From NCBI GenBank assembly GCA_035765895.1, contig DASTWL010000012.1, positions 38,565 to 102,564 of the forward strand: a stretch of 64,000 nt of DNA, in the 5' to 3' direction. How positions within the stretch are numbered: position 1 is the stretch's first letter; the number at the start of each line of letters is the position of its first letter. Origin of the DNA: Verrucomicrobiia bacterium (GTDB taxonomy: Bacteria > Verrucomicrobiota > Verrucomicrobiia > Limisphaerales > DSYF01). The notes under the pieces were generated by a model. The model ran no database searches, was not told the DNA's origin, and saw nothing but the letters and a program-made list of their open reading frames with translations. The position numbers and the translations under genes were made by a program. Shown here piece by piece: positions 703-17,264 of this stretch.

Positions 703-1007
703 GAGTCGAAGCGGAAGCGAAAATGGATTTGCCGCGCAACGCTCAGGAGGAGCGCCGGCGTCCTTGCCGGCTTGCACCGTCCGGACTCCTGCCCGCGTTC
801 GTCTCGCATTTGATTCCACCGTTTCACTGCTCGTCCGCCCCAAGCCGCTGGGGACAGCGGCGCTCCGGTTGGAGGGCGAGCGTCTCTCCATCCGAATTCC
901 CCAGCCCCAGCGGGGCGGCATCGGCGGGAACATGCCGCTCCTGAACGGAGCTTGGGATGGTTTTGGAACGGCTGGCTATAAACATGCCGCACCTACGGTG
1001 CTGTAGC

Positions 1008-1166
1008 GGCGGGCATCCTGCCTGCCGTGGAGCCGGTGCTTCCAGCCCGGCGGAAAAAACCGCACGCAAACACGAGGCGGTTGGCCAGTTCGAGCGGCCC
1101 TCGGTTCATCCACGCCCTTTCCGGGCGGCAGGATGCCGCCCTCTACGTCAGGCAGGATGCCTGACG
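1008..1166. repeat. cluster of three REP-like hairpins with the conserved core GGCA-GGA-TGCC
   Basis: Hairpins: 1008-1026 ggcgggca-tcc-tgcctgcc (opposite orientation), 1123-1141 gggcggca-gga-tgccgccc, and 1146-1166 cgtcaggca-gga-tgcctgacg. The same core occurs in the elements at 35730-35808 and 59571-59661. Confidence 0.7.
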
Positions 1167-1174
1167 CTACGTTG

Positions 1175-1258
1175 TCACTTCGCCGTCACGACGACGTGGT
1201 TCTTTTTGCCTTTGCGGAGGAGGAAGTGTTTGCCGAAGAGCAGGTCGTTGCTCGTCAT
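1175..1258 (-). pseudogene. displaced remnant of a tyrosyl-tRNA synthetase 3' end (last ~25 codons plus stop)
   Basis: The minus-strand translation is MTSNDLLFGKHFLLRKGKKNHVVVTAK*. This matches the canonical TyrRS C-terminus (..LFG..LLRrGKKN..) and the end of the live tyrS in this window (SGHYLLLRKGKKDYALV). An in-frame stop lies 4 codons upstream, so it is not a gene. Confidence 0.6.
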
Positions 1259-1520
1259 GGCTTCTTCCCATCATCTTCGCGCAACGCCATCGGCGAATGA
1301 AGTTCCGCCGCTGCGCCAGTCATCTCCTGATGCATTGTGCCCGGGCAACCGTGCAATCGCCTTGGAAAACTGGGGGGAATGAACCACGAAACACACGAAC
1401 CACACGAAAGGGAAACAAGGTCAGGGGAATAAGAGCGGCTCCATTCCCTTGACCCCAATTCCCCTGATCCAAGTTTTCAATACCCCAGCACCAGCACCGC
1501 CGCCTGCTCCGCCGGACAGT

Positions 1521-1547
1521 TCCCCTCCTGGGAGGGGTCAGGGGTGG
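1521..1547. repeat. solo arm of the CCTGACC-hairpin repeat family
   Basis: cccctcctgggaggggtcaggggtggg is a hairpin (cccctcc/ggagggg) followed by GGTCAGG.G.GGG. It has the same layout as the right arm of the element at 61444-61475. Confidence 0.45.
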
Positions 1548-1555
1548 GTTGTTCC

Positions 1556-1912
1556 TCAATACACCAGCACGAGAACAGCAGCTTGCTCGGTAGTTTTGAC
1601 AACCTCTTCAAACTTCCGCTCCTTGGTTTCGGGTTCCTTGAGCTTCGCGGCGACTTCGGGGACGGATTCGAGGAAGCCGAGGAGGAAGCTGCTCTTCACC
1701 GCGCAGTTCACGTTCTCCGGCAGTGCGCCGCTCGACGCCAGCGCGGCGCGGGCGCTCAACTTGGCCGACACCATGCCCGCCACGTTCCCGCGCTCATCCA
1801 CCAGCGCCCCGCCCGAATTGCCCGGCTGCATCGGCACGCTGATCTGGAAATGCCGCGCGTCACCCCCCGCGCCGGACAGCGACGCGACCTCACCCTTGGC
1901 CAGCCATAGCAT
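1556..1912 (-). pseudogene. truncated trypsin-like (S1C/DegP-type) serine protease, C-terminal half only
   Basis: It contains the catalytic-Ser motif GNSGGALVDERGNVAGMVS. No His/Asp-bearing N-terminal half is present. The ORF starts exactly where the lower-G+C segment begins (1913/1914). Confidence 0.55.
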
Positions 1913-1913
1913 T

Positions 1914-2768
1914 TTAGGCTTTTGAAGCGATGGAGCCAGACTTGAAAGTTGTGCTACTTGAATCGCTGGTGACCACTAAATCTTCGACAGAGCATTCCAG
2001 ACCTAAGTGAGGGGGAACCTCCACGAACCGGGTCACATATTCGAGGAATGCCTTATCTCCGATTAACTCCACCATTGTAAAAGTAAAACTTCCGTCGTTT
2101 GGCTGGTAAAGGTGCCACGCTCTGCCAGTTTTTGTTGCAGTCACTCGCTTCTGGCTCAGAAGCGTGAGGATTTTCATGAAAGCTGATTCTGAAGGCCTCA
2201 TTGGGGGCGGTTCTGTGCCTACTGGTTGGGGCAGCTTTACTGACACGCGGGCTTTCTCTTCTGCAACTCGATATTTGACATACAAAACTTTCTGGCGGAT
2301 TTCGTCTCCGTTTGCATCAGCAAAAGCTTTGGCCCACAAACCAGGCCGAGTTGCGCGGCTCTCGACTTCTTTCATGGCTTGCTCGTAGAGCGCTTCTTCA
2401 GAAATTGAAGTGAGGTGCGCTTCGTTCGTTGAAGGAACTGGTTCCAGGTGTTGAAACTGTTGGTGGGGAGTTGACGCCGGTGTTTCTCGGCTTGTTTCGG
2501 TAGGCTGAGTCGAACGACTGGACGCCGTCCGACTCCAAAGAATGGAAAACGAGATGACTCCAACGGCTCCAATTGTTGCTGGCGACTTGTCTCCAATCGC
2601 CTGCCAGAAGGCCAGAAGCCCAAGGCCGATGAAGAATGAGATAATGATTGAAGGCCACAACGAGAGCGGTCGCCGAAGTATTCCCCATCGAATTACGACT
2701 GCTGGAATCAATCCTACCAGTATCTTAAGCATAGTCCTCGGGAATCCTGTGCATTGGCTTTTCTTCAA
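1914..2768 (-). CDS. hypothetical membrane protein encoded on the lower-G+C segment
   Basis: 284-aa ORF with an N-terminal hydrophobic region (3 predicted TM helices). It has a soluble part with the motif RPGLWAKAFADANGDEIRQKVLYVKYRV. Its start overlaps the tyrS stop by 4 nt (ATGA); an alternative start is M13 at 2732. Confidence 0.5.
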   Translation of the reverse strand: MKKSQCTGFPRTMLKILVGLIPAVVIRWGILRRPLSLWPSIIISFFIGLGLLAFWQAIGDKSPATIGAVGVISFSILWSRTASSRSTQPTETSRETPASTPHQQFQHLEPVPSTNEAHLTSISEEALYEQAMKEVESRATRPGLWAKAFADANGDEIRQKVLYVKYRVAEEKARVSVKLPQPVGTEPPPMRPSESAFMKILTLLSQKRVTATKTGRAWHLYQPNDGSFTFTMVELIGDKAFLEYVTRFVEVPPHLGLECSVEDLVVTSDSSSTTFKSGSIASKA

Positions 2769-4057
2769 TCCACGATTTCTACCAATGCATAATCCTTTTT
2801 CCCCTTTCGGAGTAGAAGGTAGTGGCCTGAAAACTGGAAGATTCGCGTGCTAACGACCAAATTTTGGTCCTGTTCTCGGATATTGTTTAGATACACCCCA
2901 CCTTCTTGGATCTTTCTGCGTGCTTCGCCCTTGGACTTGAACAATCCCGCGAGGACTAGCAACTCTGCAAATGCCATCCCGGGATCATCCAATTGCCTTT
3001 TTGAAACTTTTATAGTTGGCACCTCGTTACTCAGCATCTCAAACATACCTGCTTCGTTTTGCCAGACCGTCAGCGGACTACCGAAAAGGATGTCGCTCGC
3101 TTGCAGCGCCAGTTTCGTCGCGTGTTCACCGTGGATGAGGTCGGTGGCGGCTTTGGCGAGCGCGCGGTGCGCGGCGCGGGCGCCGGGATTTGCGTTGTGT
3201 TGCGCTTCGAGCGTCGCGATTTCTTCCTGCGGCAGGAAGGTGAAGAATTTCAGGTAGCGGATCACGTCCGCATCGGCGGTGTTGATCCAGAACTGGTAGA
3301 AGCGATAGACGCTGGTCTTCTTCGGATCGAGCCACACCGAGCCGCCCTCGGTCTTGCCGAACTTGGTGCCGTCAGCCTTGGTAATGAGCGGGAGCGTGAG
3401 GCCGAACGCGGAGCGCTGAAGCTTCTTGCGGATGAGGTCCATGCCGGCGGTGATGTTGCCCCATTGGTCGCTGCCGCCGATCTGGAGTTCGCAGTTATGG
3501 TCGCGCGCCAGCACCATGTAGTCGAACGCCTGGAGCAGCATGTAGCTGAACTCGGTGTAGCTGATGCCGACTTCGCGGTCTTCCATGCGCGCGCGGACGC
3601 TCTCCTTCGCCACCATCTGATTCACGGAAAAATGCTTTCCGATGTCGCGGAGGAAATCGAGGTAGGTGAGGTGCGCGGTCCAATCGGCATTGTCCACGAG
3701 TTTGGCCGGGTTCGCTTTGGCGTCGAAATCGAGCAGCTTGGCGAGCTGCGGGCGGACGGCTTCGACGTTGGCCTTGATCTGGTCCTTGGTGAGCAGCGAG
3801 CGCTCGGCGGATTTGCCGCTCGGGTCGCCGATGCTGCCGGTCGCGCCGCCGGCGACGGCGATGGGATGATGGCCGTAATTCTGAAAGCGACGCAATGCGA
3901 GCAACGGCACGAGATGCCCGACGTGGAGCGAGTCCGCCGTGGGATCGAACCCGCAGTAAAGCGTGATGGGCGACGCGGCGAGGCGCTTGGTCAGCTCGGG
4001 CGTGTCGGTGCAATCGGCGAAGAGGCCGCGCCATTGCAGTTCATCCAGAATGTTCAT
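2765..4057 (-). CDS. tyrS: tyrosine--tRNA ligase
   Basis: The class I motifs are HVGHL (HIGH) and KFGKT (KMSKS), with a C-terminal S4-like domain. I prefer the start at MNILDELQWRG (4057) over the ORF-track start at 4198. The 3' end, about 2765-3080, has visibly lower G+C. Confidence 0.9.
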   Translation of the reverse strand: MNILDELQWRGLFADCTDTPELTKRLAASPITLYCGFDPTADSLHVGHLVPLLALRRFQNYGHHPIAVAGGATGSIGDPSGKSAERSLLTKDQIKANVEAVRPQLAKLLDFDAKANPAKLVDNADWTAHLTYLDFLRDIGKHFSVNQMVAKESVRARMEDREVGISYTEFSYMLLQAFDYMVLARDHNCELQIGGSDQWGNITAGMDLIRKKLQRSAFGLTLPLITKADGTKFGKTEGGSVWLDPKKTSVYRFYQFWINTADADVIRYLKFFTFLPQEEIATLEAQHNANPGARAAHRALAKAATDLIHGEHATKLALQASDILFGSPLTVWQNEAGMFEMLSNEVPTIKVSKRQLDDPGMAFAELLVLAGLFKSKGEARRKIQEGGVYLNNIREQDQNLVVSTRIFQFSGHYLLLRKGKKDYALVEIVD

Positions 4058-4234
4058 GGGGGCGCAGGCTAAATTGCCGTTTGCCGGATGCCAATAGCCA
4101 ATCGAATGCGCCGCCGGAAGCCGCGCAAGGAAATGCCGCTTTACTCGCAATTTTTCCATTCCTAGTTTGAGCGAGTTAATGTGGGAAGCGTTTTTCATGG
4201 AAACGCCGCAACATCAGCGCGCGGCCGCACAGGA

Positions 4235-6223
4235 ATGACTGGCAAAACCAAAATTGATCGGGCGGGCCTCGCCCTGGGCGTGGGCGTGTGGCTGGTCGTG
4301 CTGGCGGGCGTGGGCGTGGCGTTGCGGCAGATTCAGGCCAATCGGGCCGAGCTGGAGCATCAGGCGGAGCAGGAGCTGGAGTCGGTGGCGGCGTTGAAGG
4401 CGCAGCAACTGGCCGGCTGGCGGGCCGAACGGCTGGCGGATGCGAGTTTTTTCAGCAATGCCGAGTTTGTGCGGCGGGACGTGTCGGCCTTCCTGCGGGA
4501 CCGGGGTTCATCCGTCGGGCGGGAAGAAATGATCCGGTGGATGAACCTGCTCAAGGGCGGGGAGCGTTACGAGCGCGTGTGGTTGTTCAATGCGCAAGGA
4601 AACCGGCAACTGTCCGTTCCGCCGGACACCAATCCGCCTTGCGCCTGTTTGCAGGCGTTGTTGCCGGCCGGGCTTCATGCCGATCAGGTGTCGTTGAGCG
4701 ACATCGAACGCGATCCGGCTGACGGCCATCTTTGCCTCCAGGCGTTGCTGCCCGTGCGGGGGGGCAACCAGACGGAAGCGCCGGGCGCCGCCCATCCGTT
4801 GATCGTCGTCACCATCAATCCGCGCAGCGTGCTGTTTCCGATGATCCAGACCTGGCCGGTCGCCAATGCGACGGCGGAGGTTCTCCTGCTGCGGCTCGCC
4901 GGCGATGAGGCGGTGGTGCTCAACGAACTGCGGCATCGCACCAACACCGCCCTGCAAATGAAGCTGCCGCTCGATGCCTCGCAGGCGCTGACGCTGCAGG
5001 CCTTGCGCGCGGGCAAGGGCGTGTGGTGGGGCAAGGATTATCGCGGGGTGCCGGTGGTGGCGGCCGTGCGGCCGGTGCCCGGCACGCCGTGGGTGCTGGT
5101 GGCGAAAATGGATGAAGCCGAATTCTCGGCGCCGCTGCGGGGCTACTTGTGGAGCACCGTGCTGCTGCTGGTGGTGCTCGCCCTGAGCGGCCTGCTCGTG
5201 GGCAGCGTGTTGCTCCGCCGGCAGCGCACGCGGCATCTGCGCGAGGAACTGACGTTGGAACGCGCCGGCCGGGCACTGGCCGAGCGGTTCGCCATCCTGA
5301 TGGAGAATGCCGGTGACATCATTTTGCTGATGGATTCCGAATTGCGGGTGGTGGAGGCGAACCGGCAGGCGGTCGAGGTGTTTGGCTTTTCGCTGGCGGA
5401 GCTGCGGGAGAAGCGGCTGCCTGAGCTGCTCGCGCCCGGCGCCGCGGCGGAGTTGCCGCGCCGGCTGGAACAGGTGCAGGGCCACGACAGTCTCGTGGAG
5501 GTGGCGGAAGGCCGGCATCGCGACGGCCACTCCTTCCACGTCGAAATCAATGGCCGCCGCGTGATGATCGATGGCGTTGACCGGTTGTTGCTGGTCGGAC
5601 GCGACATCAGCGCGCGGTTGCAACAGGAGCAGGCCCTGCGCGAGGCGCAACGGGAGCTGCAAGCCATCGTGGATCAGGCCGGTTCCCTGATTGGCGTAAA
5701 GGCGTTGGATGGCCGTTACCGGCTGGTCAACCAGGCTCTGGCCGGGCGGCTGGGGCGTCCGGCCGAGGCGCTGCTGGGCTGCACTGATGACGAACTGCTT
5801 CCCCGCGAGGCGGCCGAACGGGCCCGGGGGCAGCACCAGGAAGTCGTTCGGCGGCGCAAGCCGCTGATCTGCGAGGAAACGTTCACCGAAGCGGACGGGG
5901 CGCACACGTATCTCTCCCTCAAATTCCCGCTGACCGACGAGCAGGGCGAACTTTACGGCGTGGGGAGCATTGCAACGGACATCACCGGGCGCAAGGAGAC
6001 GGAGGAAAAGCTTCGGGCGCAGGCGGACGAACTGCGCGCGAATTATGACGCGCTGGCGCGGTTCAATCGCGTGGTCGTGGGCCGGGAGTTGCGCATGATT
6101 GAACTCAAGCGCGAGATTAACGAGCTGTGCCGGCAACTGGGCCGTCCGGCCCCTTACGTGAGCGATTTGACGGCGGTTGGACTGGCCCCGGAAGACGTTG
6201 CGAAACCGGCAGCACAACCATGA
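4235..6223 (+). CDS. membrane PAS-domain sensor protein without a kinase or other output domain
   Basis: Layout: N-terminal TM helix, ~280-aa extracytoplasmic region, second TM helix (LWSTVLLLVVLALSGLLVG), two PAS-like segments, and a C-terminal coiled coil (RELRMIELKREINELCRQLG). No H-box or ATPase is present. The ORF opens at 4181; I prefer the start at 4235. Confidence 0.7.
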   Translation: MTGKTKIDRAGLALGVGVWLVVLAGVGVALRQIQANRAELEHQAEQELESVAALKAQQLAGWRAERLADASFFSNAEFVRRDVSAFLRDRGSSVGREEMIRWMNLLKGGERYERVWLFNAQGNRQLSVPPDTNPPCACLQALLPAGLHADQVSLSDIERDPADGHLCLQALLPVRGGNQTEAPGAAHPLIVVTINPRSVLFPMIQTWPVANATAEVLLLRLAGDEAVVLNELRHRTNTALQMKLPLDASQALTLQALRAGKGVWWGKDYRGVPVVAAVRPVPGTPWVLVAKMDEAEFSAPLRGYLWSTVLLLVVLALSGLLVGSVLLRRQRTRHLREELTLERAGRALAERFAILMENAGDIILLMDSELRVVEANRQAVEVFGFSLAELREKRLPELLAPGAAAELPRRLEQVQGHDSLVEVAEGRHRDGHSFHVEINGRRVMIDGVDRLLLVGRDISARLQQEQALREAQRELQAIVDQAGSLIGVKALDGRYRLVNQALAGRLGRPAEALLGCTDDELLPREAAERARGQHQEVVRRRKPLICEETFTEADGAHTYLSLKFPLTDEQGELYGVGSIATDITGRKETEEKLRAQADELRANYDALARFNRVVVGRELRMIELKREINELCRQLGRPAPYVSDLTAVGLAPEDVAKPAAQP

Positions 6224-16321: not shown

Positions 16322-17032
16322 TCAGATCGTCAGCGCGCCGGTTGGTTGATCCATTCGCCTCTGGCGGTTGTTTTGATGCCGAACTCGTTGCCCTCGGAAA
16401 CATACGCGCGCCAGCAGAATAGTGGCAACGCCCCAAACGACAAACCAGCCGTAAACCGTGCCGCCGATTCCAGTGCCGAGCCGGAAATGCTGGATGCGGC
16501 CGAGCAAAGGCGCTTCTGATTCGTAACCGAAGCTGTAGCCATAGTGATTGGGTGGCGGCAGAGTGCCTTGTGCTGCTGCCCGCAAATAGCCAAAGACCTG
16601 CTCCACTTGGACGCTCCCGTTGTTTGCGGACGTCAGGCTCGCGCGGTCGAGAATCCAGCCCGCCAGAATCTCCGGGCTCAGCACTCCTGTCGAGCGTGCG
16701 GACTCATAACGGAAGTCTGGCAGGCTCAAGGTCGCCTTGCCCTCCGAGTCATTTGAGGAATTATGCCATTCCAGCGTGAGCAGTTTATAGGCGAAATTCG
16801 TTGGAAACGTCCAATACCAATGAGTTGCTGTCTGCCCCTCAAACGAGAATGAAAACATCTGGTCGGAACTGACGAAGTTTCCTTGCACCCTGCTATAGTA
16901 AATTCCTGTTTTCGCGCCATCATCGCGATGCTGCTTCCGCCAAAGCAGTTGAGCACCAAAACTCCCAACAAGGAGAAATGCCATGGATGCTGCAGAGAAC
17001 GCGAGGAGCTTGGTCAATGGAAGCAAGCGCAT
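16322..17032 (-). CDS. hypothetical membrane-anchored protein in a lower-G+C islet
   Basis: I prefer the start at MRLLPLTKLLAFSAASMAFLLVG (signal/anchor). A C-terminal TM helix is present. I recognise no family. Confidence 0.45.
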   Translation of the reverse strand: MRLLPLTKLLAFSAASMAFLLVGSFGAQLLWRKQHRDDGAKTGIYYSRVQGNFVSSDQMFSFSFEGQTATHWYWTFPTNFAYKLLTLEWHNSSNDSEGKATLSLPDFRYESARSTGVLSPEILAGWILDRASLTSANNGSVQVEQVFGYLRAAAQGTLPPPNHYGYSFGYESEAPLLGRIQHFRLGTGIGGTVYGWFVVWGVATILLARVCFRGQRVRHQNNRQRRMDQPTGALTI

Positions 17033-17264
17033 GCAAAGTCCCACATGGTCACGAGTAAAACAAACCAATAACCCACGGTGCCACCAGCAAGGCCGCGCCG
17101 ATCCCGAATATGACGAGATACGTGAAGCGTAAGCCTCTCGCAAGGTATGCCTTCGAGTGTGTCGGGCAAGCGGTTTTTAAAATCCCGCTCACTTCGATGC
17201 GGCGGACGAGTGGCGCGTGAGCGACGCGGATTTGTCGGATGGCGGCAGGATGCAGTGAGCAGCG

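Follow-up and report, generated by a model that had tools for sequence, protein, structure and literature searches.

A chimeric tyrS with a displaced native 3′ end, and its recurrence in the Limisphaerales

A displaced gene end is known from Escherichia coli K-12, where prophage e14 sits in icd and the pseudogene icdC is the displaced 3′ end of that gene (PMC13626634; Hill et al., 1989, cited there). Displacement of C-terminal coding parts is also described in the Rhs and CdiA polymorphic toxins and, as a sequential displacement of effector-immunity modules, in Vibrio cholerae's type VI secretion system (T6SS) (Jackson et al., 2009; Kirchberger et al., 2017; PMC5361080). The mechanism proposed for the V. 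cholerae arrays is homology-facilitated illegitimate recombination (PMC5361080), a process described in natural transformation (de Vries and Wackernagel, 2002; Prudhomme et al., 2002; both as cited in PMC5361080 and PMC3240628). Here we set beside these systems the gene for tyrosyl-tRNA synthetase (TyrRS), tyrS, in a 64-kb stretch of DNA from a Verrucomicrobiia bacterium (Limisphaerales, DSYF01; assembly GCA_035765895.1, contig DASTWL010000012.1, positions 38,565-102,564 of the forward strand). We call this whole stretch the window and give positions within it. The window's tyrS is a live gene and a chimera: its native 5′ part is joined to a foreign 3′ part, and the native gene end lies separately, further along the minus strand (Table 1).

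A chimeric tyrS and its displaced native end

The gene runs on the minus strand from an ATG at 4057 to a stop at 2767-2765 and encodes 430 amino acids (aa); a longer, listed open reading frame (ORF) of 477 aa only extends it upstream, and the real start is at 4057. The product is a complete bacterial tyrosyl-tRNA synthetase. It matches TIGR00234 (tyrS) over its full length (E = 6e-124; 414 bits against a cutoff of 113.8 bits), carries the class I catalytic motifs HVGH and KFGKT, contains the Pfam domains tRNA-synt_1b (residues 29-325) and SYY_C-terminal (residues 341-426), and aligns end to end with the TyrRS of Bacillus stearothermophilus (PDB 2ts1).

The two parts of this protein differ sharply in their similarity to relatives. 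The closest relatives (P0002-P0004; Limisphaerales, Verrucomicrobiota) share 96% identity with residues 1-326 and only about 39-42% with residues 327-430. The C-domain does evolve faster than the N-domain in this clade, but where the N-domains of two Limisphaerales TyrRS are 92-96% identical, their C-domains have a median identity of 88%, against ~40% here, and the window's protein is the most extreme outlier in N-versus-C identity among the 174 Limisphaerales sequences compared. Base composition changes as well: G+C falls from ~0.62 to 0.44-0.53 between ~3080 and 1914 and then returns to 0.65-0.72, and the 1160-nt stretch from 1901 has the lowest G+C in the whole window (0.491 against a mean of 0.635 with a standard deviation of 0.027, more than five standard deviations below). 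The G+C content of third codon positions (GC3) drops from 0.85 to 0.53 around codons 311-331. A preliminary reading made from the letters alone (the sequence-only reading) had held that the tail of tyrS and the following gene are A+T-richer than their surroundings and that a foreign S4 domain has replaced the gene's end, and had proposed a composition plot and a separate comparison of the two halves; both analyses place a break there, and they bear out that view.

The foreign domain remains a recognisable TyrRS C-domain: it matches Pfam SYY_C-terminal (E = 7e-16) and retains two motifs, RKGKK and SKGxAR. Its identity to the Limisphaerales C-domains with which it was compared is 36-45% in every case. 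No donor emerged from an exhaustive HMMER search of 1.84 billion representatives (best match ~52%) or from a scan of JGI metagenome contigs (best 51%), and among viral contigs none was seen to encode any relative of either C-terminal domain. A word-indexed protein search gave a best match of 49%, but it also missed the identical P0001 and is therefore uninformative.

Several lines of evidence locate the left junction. BLAST matches to many relatives stop at 3081/3080, and DNA identity between the native 5′ part and one relative (L084) holds at 92% as far as 3081. In a multiple alignment with L084 and L090-L092, the window is native-like to ~3116, shares only the ASxILFG motif over 3100-3081 and is unrelated from 3080 onwards. 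At the protein level, sliding-window identity drops from 100 to 33% across residues 301-321, with the break at residues 311-326. Residue 319 of the window's protein aligns with residue 317 of the Bacillus enzyme (2ts1), the point at which the truncated crystal forms (1-317/319) end. The N-terminal fragment of TyrRS activates tyrosine, and binding of tRNA-Tyr requires the C-terminal domain. Because the left break coincides with the boundary between the catalytic fragment and the C-terminal domain, the foreign segment corresponds to the whole tRNA-binding module. The hybrid enzyme is probably functional, since TyrRS is normally essential, though a second tyrS could lie elsewhere in the genome, beyond the 64 kb of the window.

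The native end of the gene is still present, ~1.5 kb downstream of the live stop. Homology to tyrS starts again at 1261, which sets the right junction at 1262/1261; upstream of that point there is no detectable homology to tyrS. The relatives' native C-terminus (VTSNDLLFGKHVLLRKGKKNYVVVTAK) and a 27-codon ORF at 1258..1175 agree at 24 of 27 residues, and the remnant matches positions 61-83 of the 83 in the Pfam SYY_C-terminal profile (E = 0.005). At the DNA level, positions 1261-1165 are 85-90% identical to the tyrS ends of L084, L090, L091 and L092. This match extends 10 nt beyond the stop and there enters a common CGTAGCG-hairpin sequence; the post-stop sequence beside the remnant is common to L084, L090 and L092. 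Because the DNA match runs past the stop into the relatives' post-stop sequence, the remnant is the original gene end, still in its original place: it is the native tyrS end, in situ and dead. The sequence-only reading had already identified 1175-1258 as the original terminus and had expected the tyrS of relatives to run straight into the equivalent sequence, as it does; only the extent needs correcting, as the full remnant is 87 nt (1261-1175, 28 codons and the stop). A still longer remnant, reaching to ~1345 (~170 nt before the stop, which would match the L025 junction), was rejected: its score of 11 compares with 9.8 ± 1.4 for shuffled sequences, and 256 of 1000 shuffles scored as high. The argument for a two-part remnant (donor and native) was dropped for this reason.

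The live gene end and the remnant have little in common. The live gene carries 104-116 foreign codons against the remnant's 28 codons and stop. Their terminal 87-nt segments (live 2851-2765, remnant 1261-1175) are identical at 32 of 87 positions when aligned without gaps; the longest common stretch is the RKGKK codons, and beyond these the two share no identical core. Direct repeats at the two junctions, for which a search near ~1260 and ~3080 had been suggested, were not found. Just past the remnant stop, where REP-like hairpins had been pointed out, stands an element with inverted repeats (1003-1032 and 1141-1170) that are 87% complementary, and relatives carry a related hairpin (GTAGCGGCG...) just past their own tyrS stop. 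Elements of this type (~170 bp), resembling repetitive extragenic palindromes or miniature inverted-repeat transposable elements (REP/MITE-like), are dispersed in the Limisphaerales: two lie in L017 (3809-3984 and 15984-16156), and others in L015 (4862-5027) and L011 (3755-3994).

Table 1. Features of the window's tyrS locus (positions in the window) and displaced tyrS remnants at other Limisphaerales loci (remnant start relative to the remnant's stop).
Sequence	Feature	Position	Strand	Basis or remarks
Window	Native 5′ tyrS part, codons 1-314, catalytic Rossmann and alpha-helical domains	3116..4057	-	Aligns with 2ts1 residues 1-317; GC3 0.85
Window	Left crossover zone, codons 315-326 (KLALQASDILFG), conserved ASxILFG motif inside	3080..3115	-	DNA alignment, BLAST ends
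Window	Foreign 3′ tyrS part, codons 327-430 and stop, linker and S4-like tRNA-binding domain	2765..3079	-	G+C 0.47, GC3 0.53
Window	Cargo ORF, predicted membrane protein	1914..2768	-	284 aa from TTG overlapping tyrS stop, or 272 aa from ATG at 2732; G+C 0.51, GC3 0.49
Window	5′-truncated trypsin-like serine protease, C-terminal 118 codons, pseudogene fragment	1556..1912	-	Pfam Trypsin_2 positions 98-144 of 144 only; G+C 0.65, GC3 0.82
Window	Non-coding spacer (~290 nt): 46-nt hairpin-bearing insert, 33-nt second copy of protease 3′ end, more hairpins	1262..1555	-	Sequence read
Window	Displaced native tyrS 3′ end, 28 codons and stop, 87 nt	1175..1261	-	24/27 residues; 85-90% DNA identity; GC3 0.89
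Window	REP/MITE-like element, 168 nt, 30-nt terminal inverted repeats (GTAGCGGCGGGCATCCTGCC...)	1003..1170	.	Sits 5 nt past remnant stop
L084	Remnant; cargo: two small ORFs in 595 bp	-108 nt		108-bp imperfect direct repeat
L020	Remnant; cargo: Sortilin/BNR-like repeat protein	-155 nt		
L025	Remnant; cargo: zinc-ribbon membrane protein and unknown ORF	-168 nt		
L017	Remnant; cargo: frameshifted zeta-toxin/AAA_33 gene and small partner ORF	about -70 nt		
L034	Remnant; cargo: protease and HNH_5 protein	about -55 nt		

Between the junctions lies an insert of ~1.8 kb (~3115/3080 to 1262) that is composite, as the sequence-only reading had proposed. An A+T-rich layer (3079-1914) holds the foreign domain and the cargo ORF, and a G+C-rich layer (1912-1262) holds the protease fragment and a spacer. 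G+C jumps from 0.49 to 0.65-0.72 at 1913, and the cut in the protease coincides exactly with the cargo ORF's end. The insert probably formed by at least two successive events, with the protease layer apparently the older because the A+T-rich layer truncates the protease; alternatively, the donor DNA may have been composite already. The ORFs between 3080 and 1262 encode the foreign domain, the membrane protein and the protease fragment; there is no integrase or recombinase among them, in line with the same preliminary reading. Searches for tRNA genes, Rfam families, promoters and terminators found nothing relevant.

The cargo ORF overlaps the tyrS stop, as had been read, but the overlap is TTGA with a TTG start and not ATGA; its first ATG stands 12 codons past the TTG. 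The ORF has no Pfam, NCBIfam, PADLOC or PHROG hit that would indicate a function, and no match in viral contigs. It has an invariant central motif (EALYEQAM..S..R.G.WAKAF) in common with four homologues (P0155-P0158), none of which adjoins tyrS. An AlphaFold model shows three N-terminal helices, a disordered linker and a helical motif; its confidence is low (predicted local distance difference test score, 53), too poor for a fold search.

The protease fragment, likewise seen before along with repeats between the gene ends, has a counterpart in the tyrS island of another locus (L034). There, in the opposite orientation, lies a full-length, 448-aa protease with which the fragment shares 82% identity in DNA and 77% in protein; that host and the window share only 75% identity in the TyrRS N-domain. 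A 1-nt indel at 1869 in the fragment, present in the sister assemblies L081 and L083 described below, fits a pseudogene. In L034 (3706-6314), two genes stand beside the remnant, that of the full-length, trypsin-like protease and one for a 291-aa HNH_5 endonuclease-like protein; the 3′ half of that protease gene is G+C-rich (0.59-0.71) and the 5′ half A+T-rich (0.38-0.47), with part of it masked by a run of N. In the window the protease 3′ end appears twice, at 1588-1556 (...AAVLVLVY*) and 1509-1477 (...AAVLVLGY*), over 33 nt with ~76% identity, and a 46-nt insert with a CCCCTCCCAGGAGGGG hairpin lies between both copies; the tyrS pattern is repeated here in miniature. The idea that the spacer (1555-1262) is a dispersed repeat was rejected, as neither the window nor any locus contains a further copy. 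Elsewhere in the window, the sole other patch with G+C of 0.50 or less (in 313-nt windows) is at 16322-17143, inside a 273-aa hypothetical ORF beside a 445-aa ORF, and may be another small foreign insert.

The same chimeric tyrS occurs in three Logan assemblies from other runs (L081, L082 and L083; SRR24905889, SRR24905890 and SRR24905897), and since all three show the same arrangement it is not an assembly artefact. L081 and L083 also have the same cargo ORF and protease fragment, and L082 breaks off within the cargo ORF, at window position 2628. Compared with L081, the window has 3 differences over 1525 nt of the island, and its flank beyond 5500 differs at 4-5% of positions. The two are nearly identical from 5500 to 1521 except for 11 single-nucleotide polymorphisms within 88 nt at 3278-3191, just upstream of the junction. 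L083 joins the window's upstream flank to L081's tyrS alleles; this mosaicism of the sister assemblies argues that recombination is active across the locus and that the island has recently spread or swept in the population. For a selection test of the hybrid gene, a single synonymous difference is available. Assemblies tend to break shortly past chimeric tyrS genes, and L081 and L083 end in a hairpin at window position 1521. At other loci with a discordant TyrRS, the P0052 contig ends 20 nt past the tyrS stop, and the three P0078 contigs inspected (13 are on record) end ~500-700 nt past it (L174 11800-12067; end of L173). The ends of contigs L174 and L175 hold, by eye, a candidate frameshifted helix-turn-helix N-terminus of an insertion sequence (IS) transposase.

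Recurrence at tyrS in the Limisphaerales

A displaced tyrS 3′ remnant is present at five further loci among ~55 Limisphaerales tyrS loci (one genome per species, with 10 kb downstream inspected at each). The remnants lie 0.6-2.7 kb past the live stop, with different cargo each time (Table 1); two more loci, L013 and L027, are weaker candidates. Each locus has one remnant, and there are no arrays of orphans. Among ~100 tyrS loci of other bacteria, no credible remnant was found. In a strict automated test of 604 genes in Limisphaerales loci, 3′ remnants were found at 2 of 44 tyrS genes and at 0 of 560 others (Fisher p = 0.005); three non-tyrS hits of this test were discarded, one being a tandem paralogue, one a repeat element and one low-complexity sequence. 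In the Limisphaerales, the 3′ end of tyrS is an insertion hotspot specific to the lineage, and the events are independent.

Signs of a foreign gene end recur as well. A drop in G+C begins inside tyrS, 380-480 nt before the stop, in L020, L025 and L034, and also in P0078. The C-domain is discordant with the N-domain in the same four and in P0052; these breaks fall near residues 261-320. (A C-domain that seemed "100% identical" between P0052 and L048 was discarded as the artefactual product of an overlap of three columns.) Among themselves, the foreign C-domains of the window, L020 and L025 share only 38-51% identity. L025 gives a clean comparison with an empty site: 7 nt separate the end of its remnant from a convergent M48 peptidase gene, and in L015, L038 and L043 that gene follows tyrS directly, at 29-85 nt.

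Apart from the protease module and one 50-nt match, the islands have no shared ends or inverted repeats. No recombinase was found among the island cargo ORFs scanned in L084, L020, L025, L017 and L034, and no integrase family (Pfam) recurs in 150 ORFs within ~5 kb downstream of tyrS in ~50 genomes. Nor is there a sign of a conserved attB in the gene: over the last 25 codons identity at synonymous sites is 0.49, and in the rest of tyrS it is 0.39-0.63, so that the gene end is not unusual.

The surroundings of tyrS vary greatly. In L017 (11323-12200), toxin-antitoxin-like cargo directly follows tyrS, the zeta-toxin/AAA_33 gene being frameshifted and its partner 72 aa long, and on the P0005 contig tyrS is followed by an Unstab_antitox-family gene and a 100-aa ORF. 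Large PAS-domain sensor proteins are encoded divergently upstream of tyrS in the window (4181-6223, plus strand, and beyond, from the comparison with L081). Even among the closest relatives the neighbourhood differs on both sides, with a thiamine pyrophosphate enzyme in L084, giant DUF4082 proteins in L090-L092 and rpsA in L173.

Origin of the island

We consider it rather probable that the locus arose by C-terminal displacement through homology-anchored recombination and not by integrase-mediated insertion. In such an event, A+T-rich foreign DNA carrying a complete TyrRS C-terminal domain and the downstream membrane-protein gene would have recombined into the resident tyrS. The left junction would be a homologous or homeologous crossover in the conserved core, in or beside the ASxILFG motif at the domain boundary, and the right junction a non-homologous join; the native codons between them would have been lost, and the last 28 with the stop would have stayed behind as a dead remnant. 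With two layers in the insert, an older protease-bearing insertion might have made the remnant, and the later A+T-rich segment might then have displaced the earlier tyrS end together with the 5′ part of the protease. A replacement event is favoured because the left crossover lies inside the gene, the right join is non-homologous and the native codons between are gone. A simple site-specific integration fits poorly, since the foreign segment is far longer than the remnant and there is neither a core nor junction repeats. Of the two origins that the sequence-only reading had offered, an integrating element that brought a replacement 3′ end (104-116 codons against 28) thus suits the locus less well than its other suggestion, patch replacement.

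Several points weigh against this recombination. First, untargeted recombination does not explain the specificity for tyrS, with ~560 neighbouring genes spared, and a targeted element would give it. Second, a check of the right junction for microhomology would need the donor, and the foreign domain and cargo ORF have been seen adjacent in no source genome. Third, the inspected 10 kb downstream of each tyrS would let larger integrase-bearing elements escape, and the Pfam screen excludes just those integrase families that occur in at least 2 of the 150 ORFs. The specificity could have other sources: tyrS is possibly the sole anchor available, an isolated conserved gene amid highly variable neighbourhoods, and it is possible too that only exchanges of the whole C-terminal module yield a working enzyme.

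The specificity for tyrS (2 of 44 against 0 of ~560, Fisher p = 0.005) would be expected if the island were a decayed site-specific integrative element of the e14/icd kind, whose integrase and most of whose length were later deleted, leaving cargo and the remnant on the attR side. The layout, in which the element supplies a 3′ end and the native fragment sits at the far junction, matches e14 in icd and its pseudogene icdC (PMC13626634), L084 has a clean 108-bp imperfect direct repeat around its 595-bp insert, and the lack of a close relative of the foreign domains in every database would be consistent with a long stay on mobile elements. However, no integrase is present in or near any island, and the foreign part is two to several times the length of the remnant in the window, L020, L025 and L034, which a single crossover in a shared core cannot give. 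The remnant start points also vary by island, and there are no conserved ends, no identical core, no attB sign at synonymous sites and no viral contig with a relative of either C-terminal domain. We regard a decayed element as unlikely, though still the strongest of the competing explanations.

Somewhat more doubtful is the idea that the tyrS 3′ end is a dedicated landing site, in the Limisphaerales, for integrase-free cassettes of a kind not yet described, each bringing its own tRNA-binding domain and using tyrS as its anchor. Such cassettes might propagate themselves, or the C-domain might be under diversifying selection (for example, from an unknown targeting factor). We judge it a little less probable again that the insert is an integrase-free cassette which, once formed, spreads by ordinary homologous recombination through a double crossover, with the live 3′ part and the remnant serving as homology arms into a naive tyrS in any downstream context. 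The wide variation in synteny on both sides of tyrS, which leaves the gene as the only common anchor among relatives, would suit such spread. The contrast between 3 of 1525 nt in the island and 4-5% in the flank (window versus L081) points to recent exchange or a sweep, and the protease module is shared at 82% DNA identity between hosts whose N-domains are 75% identical. Yet no identical island is found in two host lineages, each having its own foreign domain and cargo, and the window's remnant is native-like throughout, with no donor-derived portion to mark an internal crossover.

The remnant and the independent assemblies already refute both a metagenomic misjoin of two organisms inside tyrS, a gene conserved enough to mislead assemblers, and fast divergence of the C-domain in place, in keeping with its faster evolution in the clade: three other assemblies have the same structure, host-level G+C returns after the island and is followed by the native remnant and post-stop sequence, the C-domain stands at ~40% where the median is 88% (N-domain identity 92-96%), and divergence in place cannot make a second copy of the gene end.

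Implications and comparison with described systems

In the window, an essential enzyme apparently runs on a tRNA-binding domain only ~40% identical to the native one, which would be a natural domain-swap experiment on the modularity of bacterial TyrRS. More broadly, the tyrS 3′ end is a hotspot for small islands in Verrucomicrobiota, whose cargo includes toxin-antitoxin-like, HNH, protease and unknown membrane-protein genes. There are practical consequences too: the remnant ORF and the protease fragment should be annotated as pseudogenes, and tyrS-based phylogenies in this group should omit the C-terminal domain.

The likeness to e14 in icd lies in the fate of the target. In both cases a housekeeping gene stays functional (at tyrS, probably so) through a substitute 3′ end that came with the insert, the original fragment is a pseudogene at the far junction, and the gene's 3′ end is accordingly duplicated (here, live 2851-2765 and remnant 1261-1175). 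The differences lie in the machinery and the substitute. e14 has an integrase, excises, and brings a substitute end nearly identical to its host's, whereas the tyrS island lacks an integrase and substitutes an entire domain that is only ~40% identical to its native counterpart. The common core that site-specific integration of this kind entails, and a foreign segment equal in length to the remnant, are both lacking at tyrS.

Homology-facilitated illegitimate recombination resembles the locus in another way: a conserved gene anchors the exchange on one side, foreign DNA enters, recipient DNA is lost, and no element machinery takes part. The window's left junction lies in a conserved motif and its right junction has no detectable tyrS homology upstream, with microhomology there assessable only against a donor sequence. 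The process differs in being known, from work in the laboratory, as a rare and untargeted event, whereas the outcomes at tyrS concentrate on one gene in one order.

The pattern also resembles that of the Rhs, CdiA and T6SS loci. There too, a constant 5′ part is joined to a variable, horizontally acquired 3′ part (96% against ~39% identity at tyrS), and displaced 3′ fragments lie downstream and recur with different modules, as in the window, the five other loci and, weakly, L013 and L027. Further likenesses are the lack of an integrase, the proposed combination of a homologous anchor on one side with an illegitimate join on the other, and signs of successive layers. The tyrS locus differs in that its target is an essential translation enzyme and its variable part a tRNA-binding domain and not a toxin, in cargo that bears no toxin or immunity signature in the window, and in having a single remnant and no array of orphans. 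By recurring within a single order with no integrase, the tyrS islands take C-terminal displacement beyond the polymorphic toxins. The locus is of a known kind, C-terminal displacement or 3′-end replacement, here with an essential aminoacyl-tRNA synthetase as its target; it recurs within one order of the Verrucomicrobiota, with no integrase detected.

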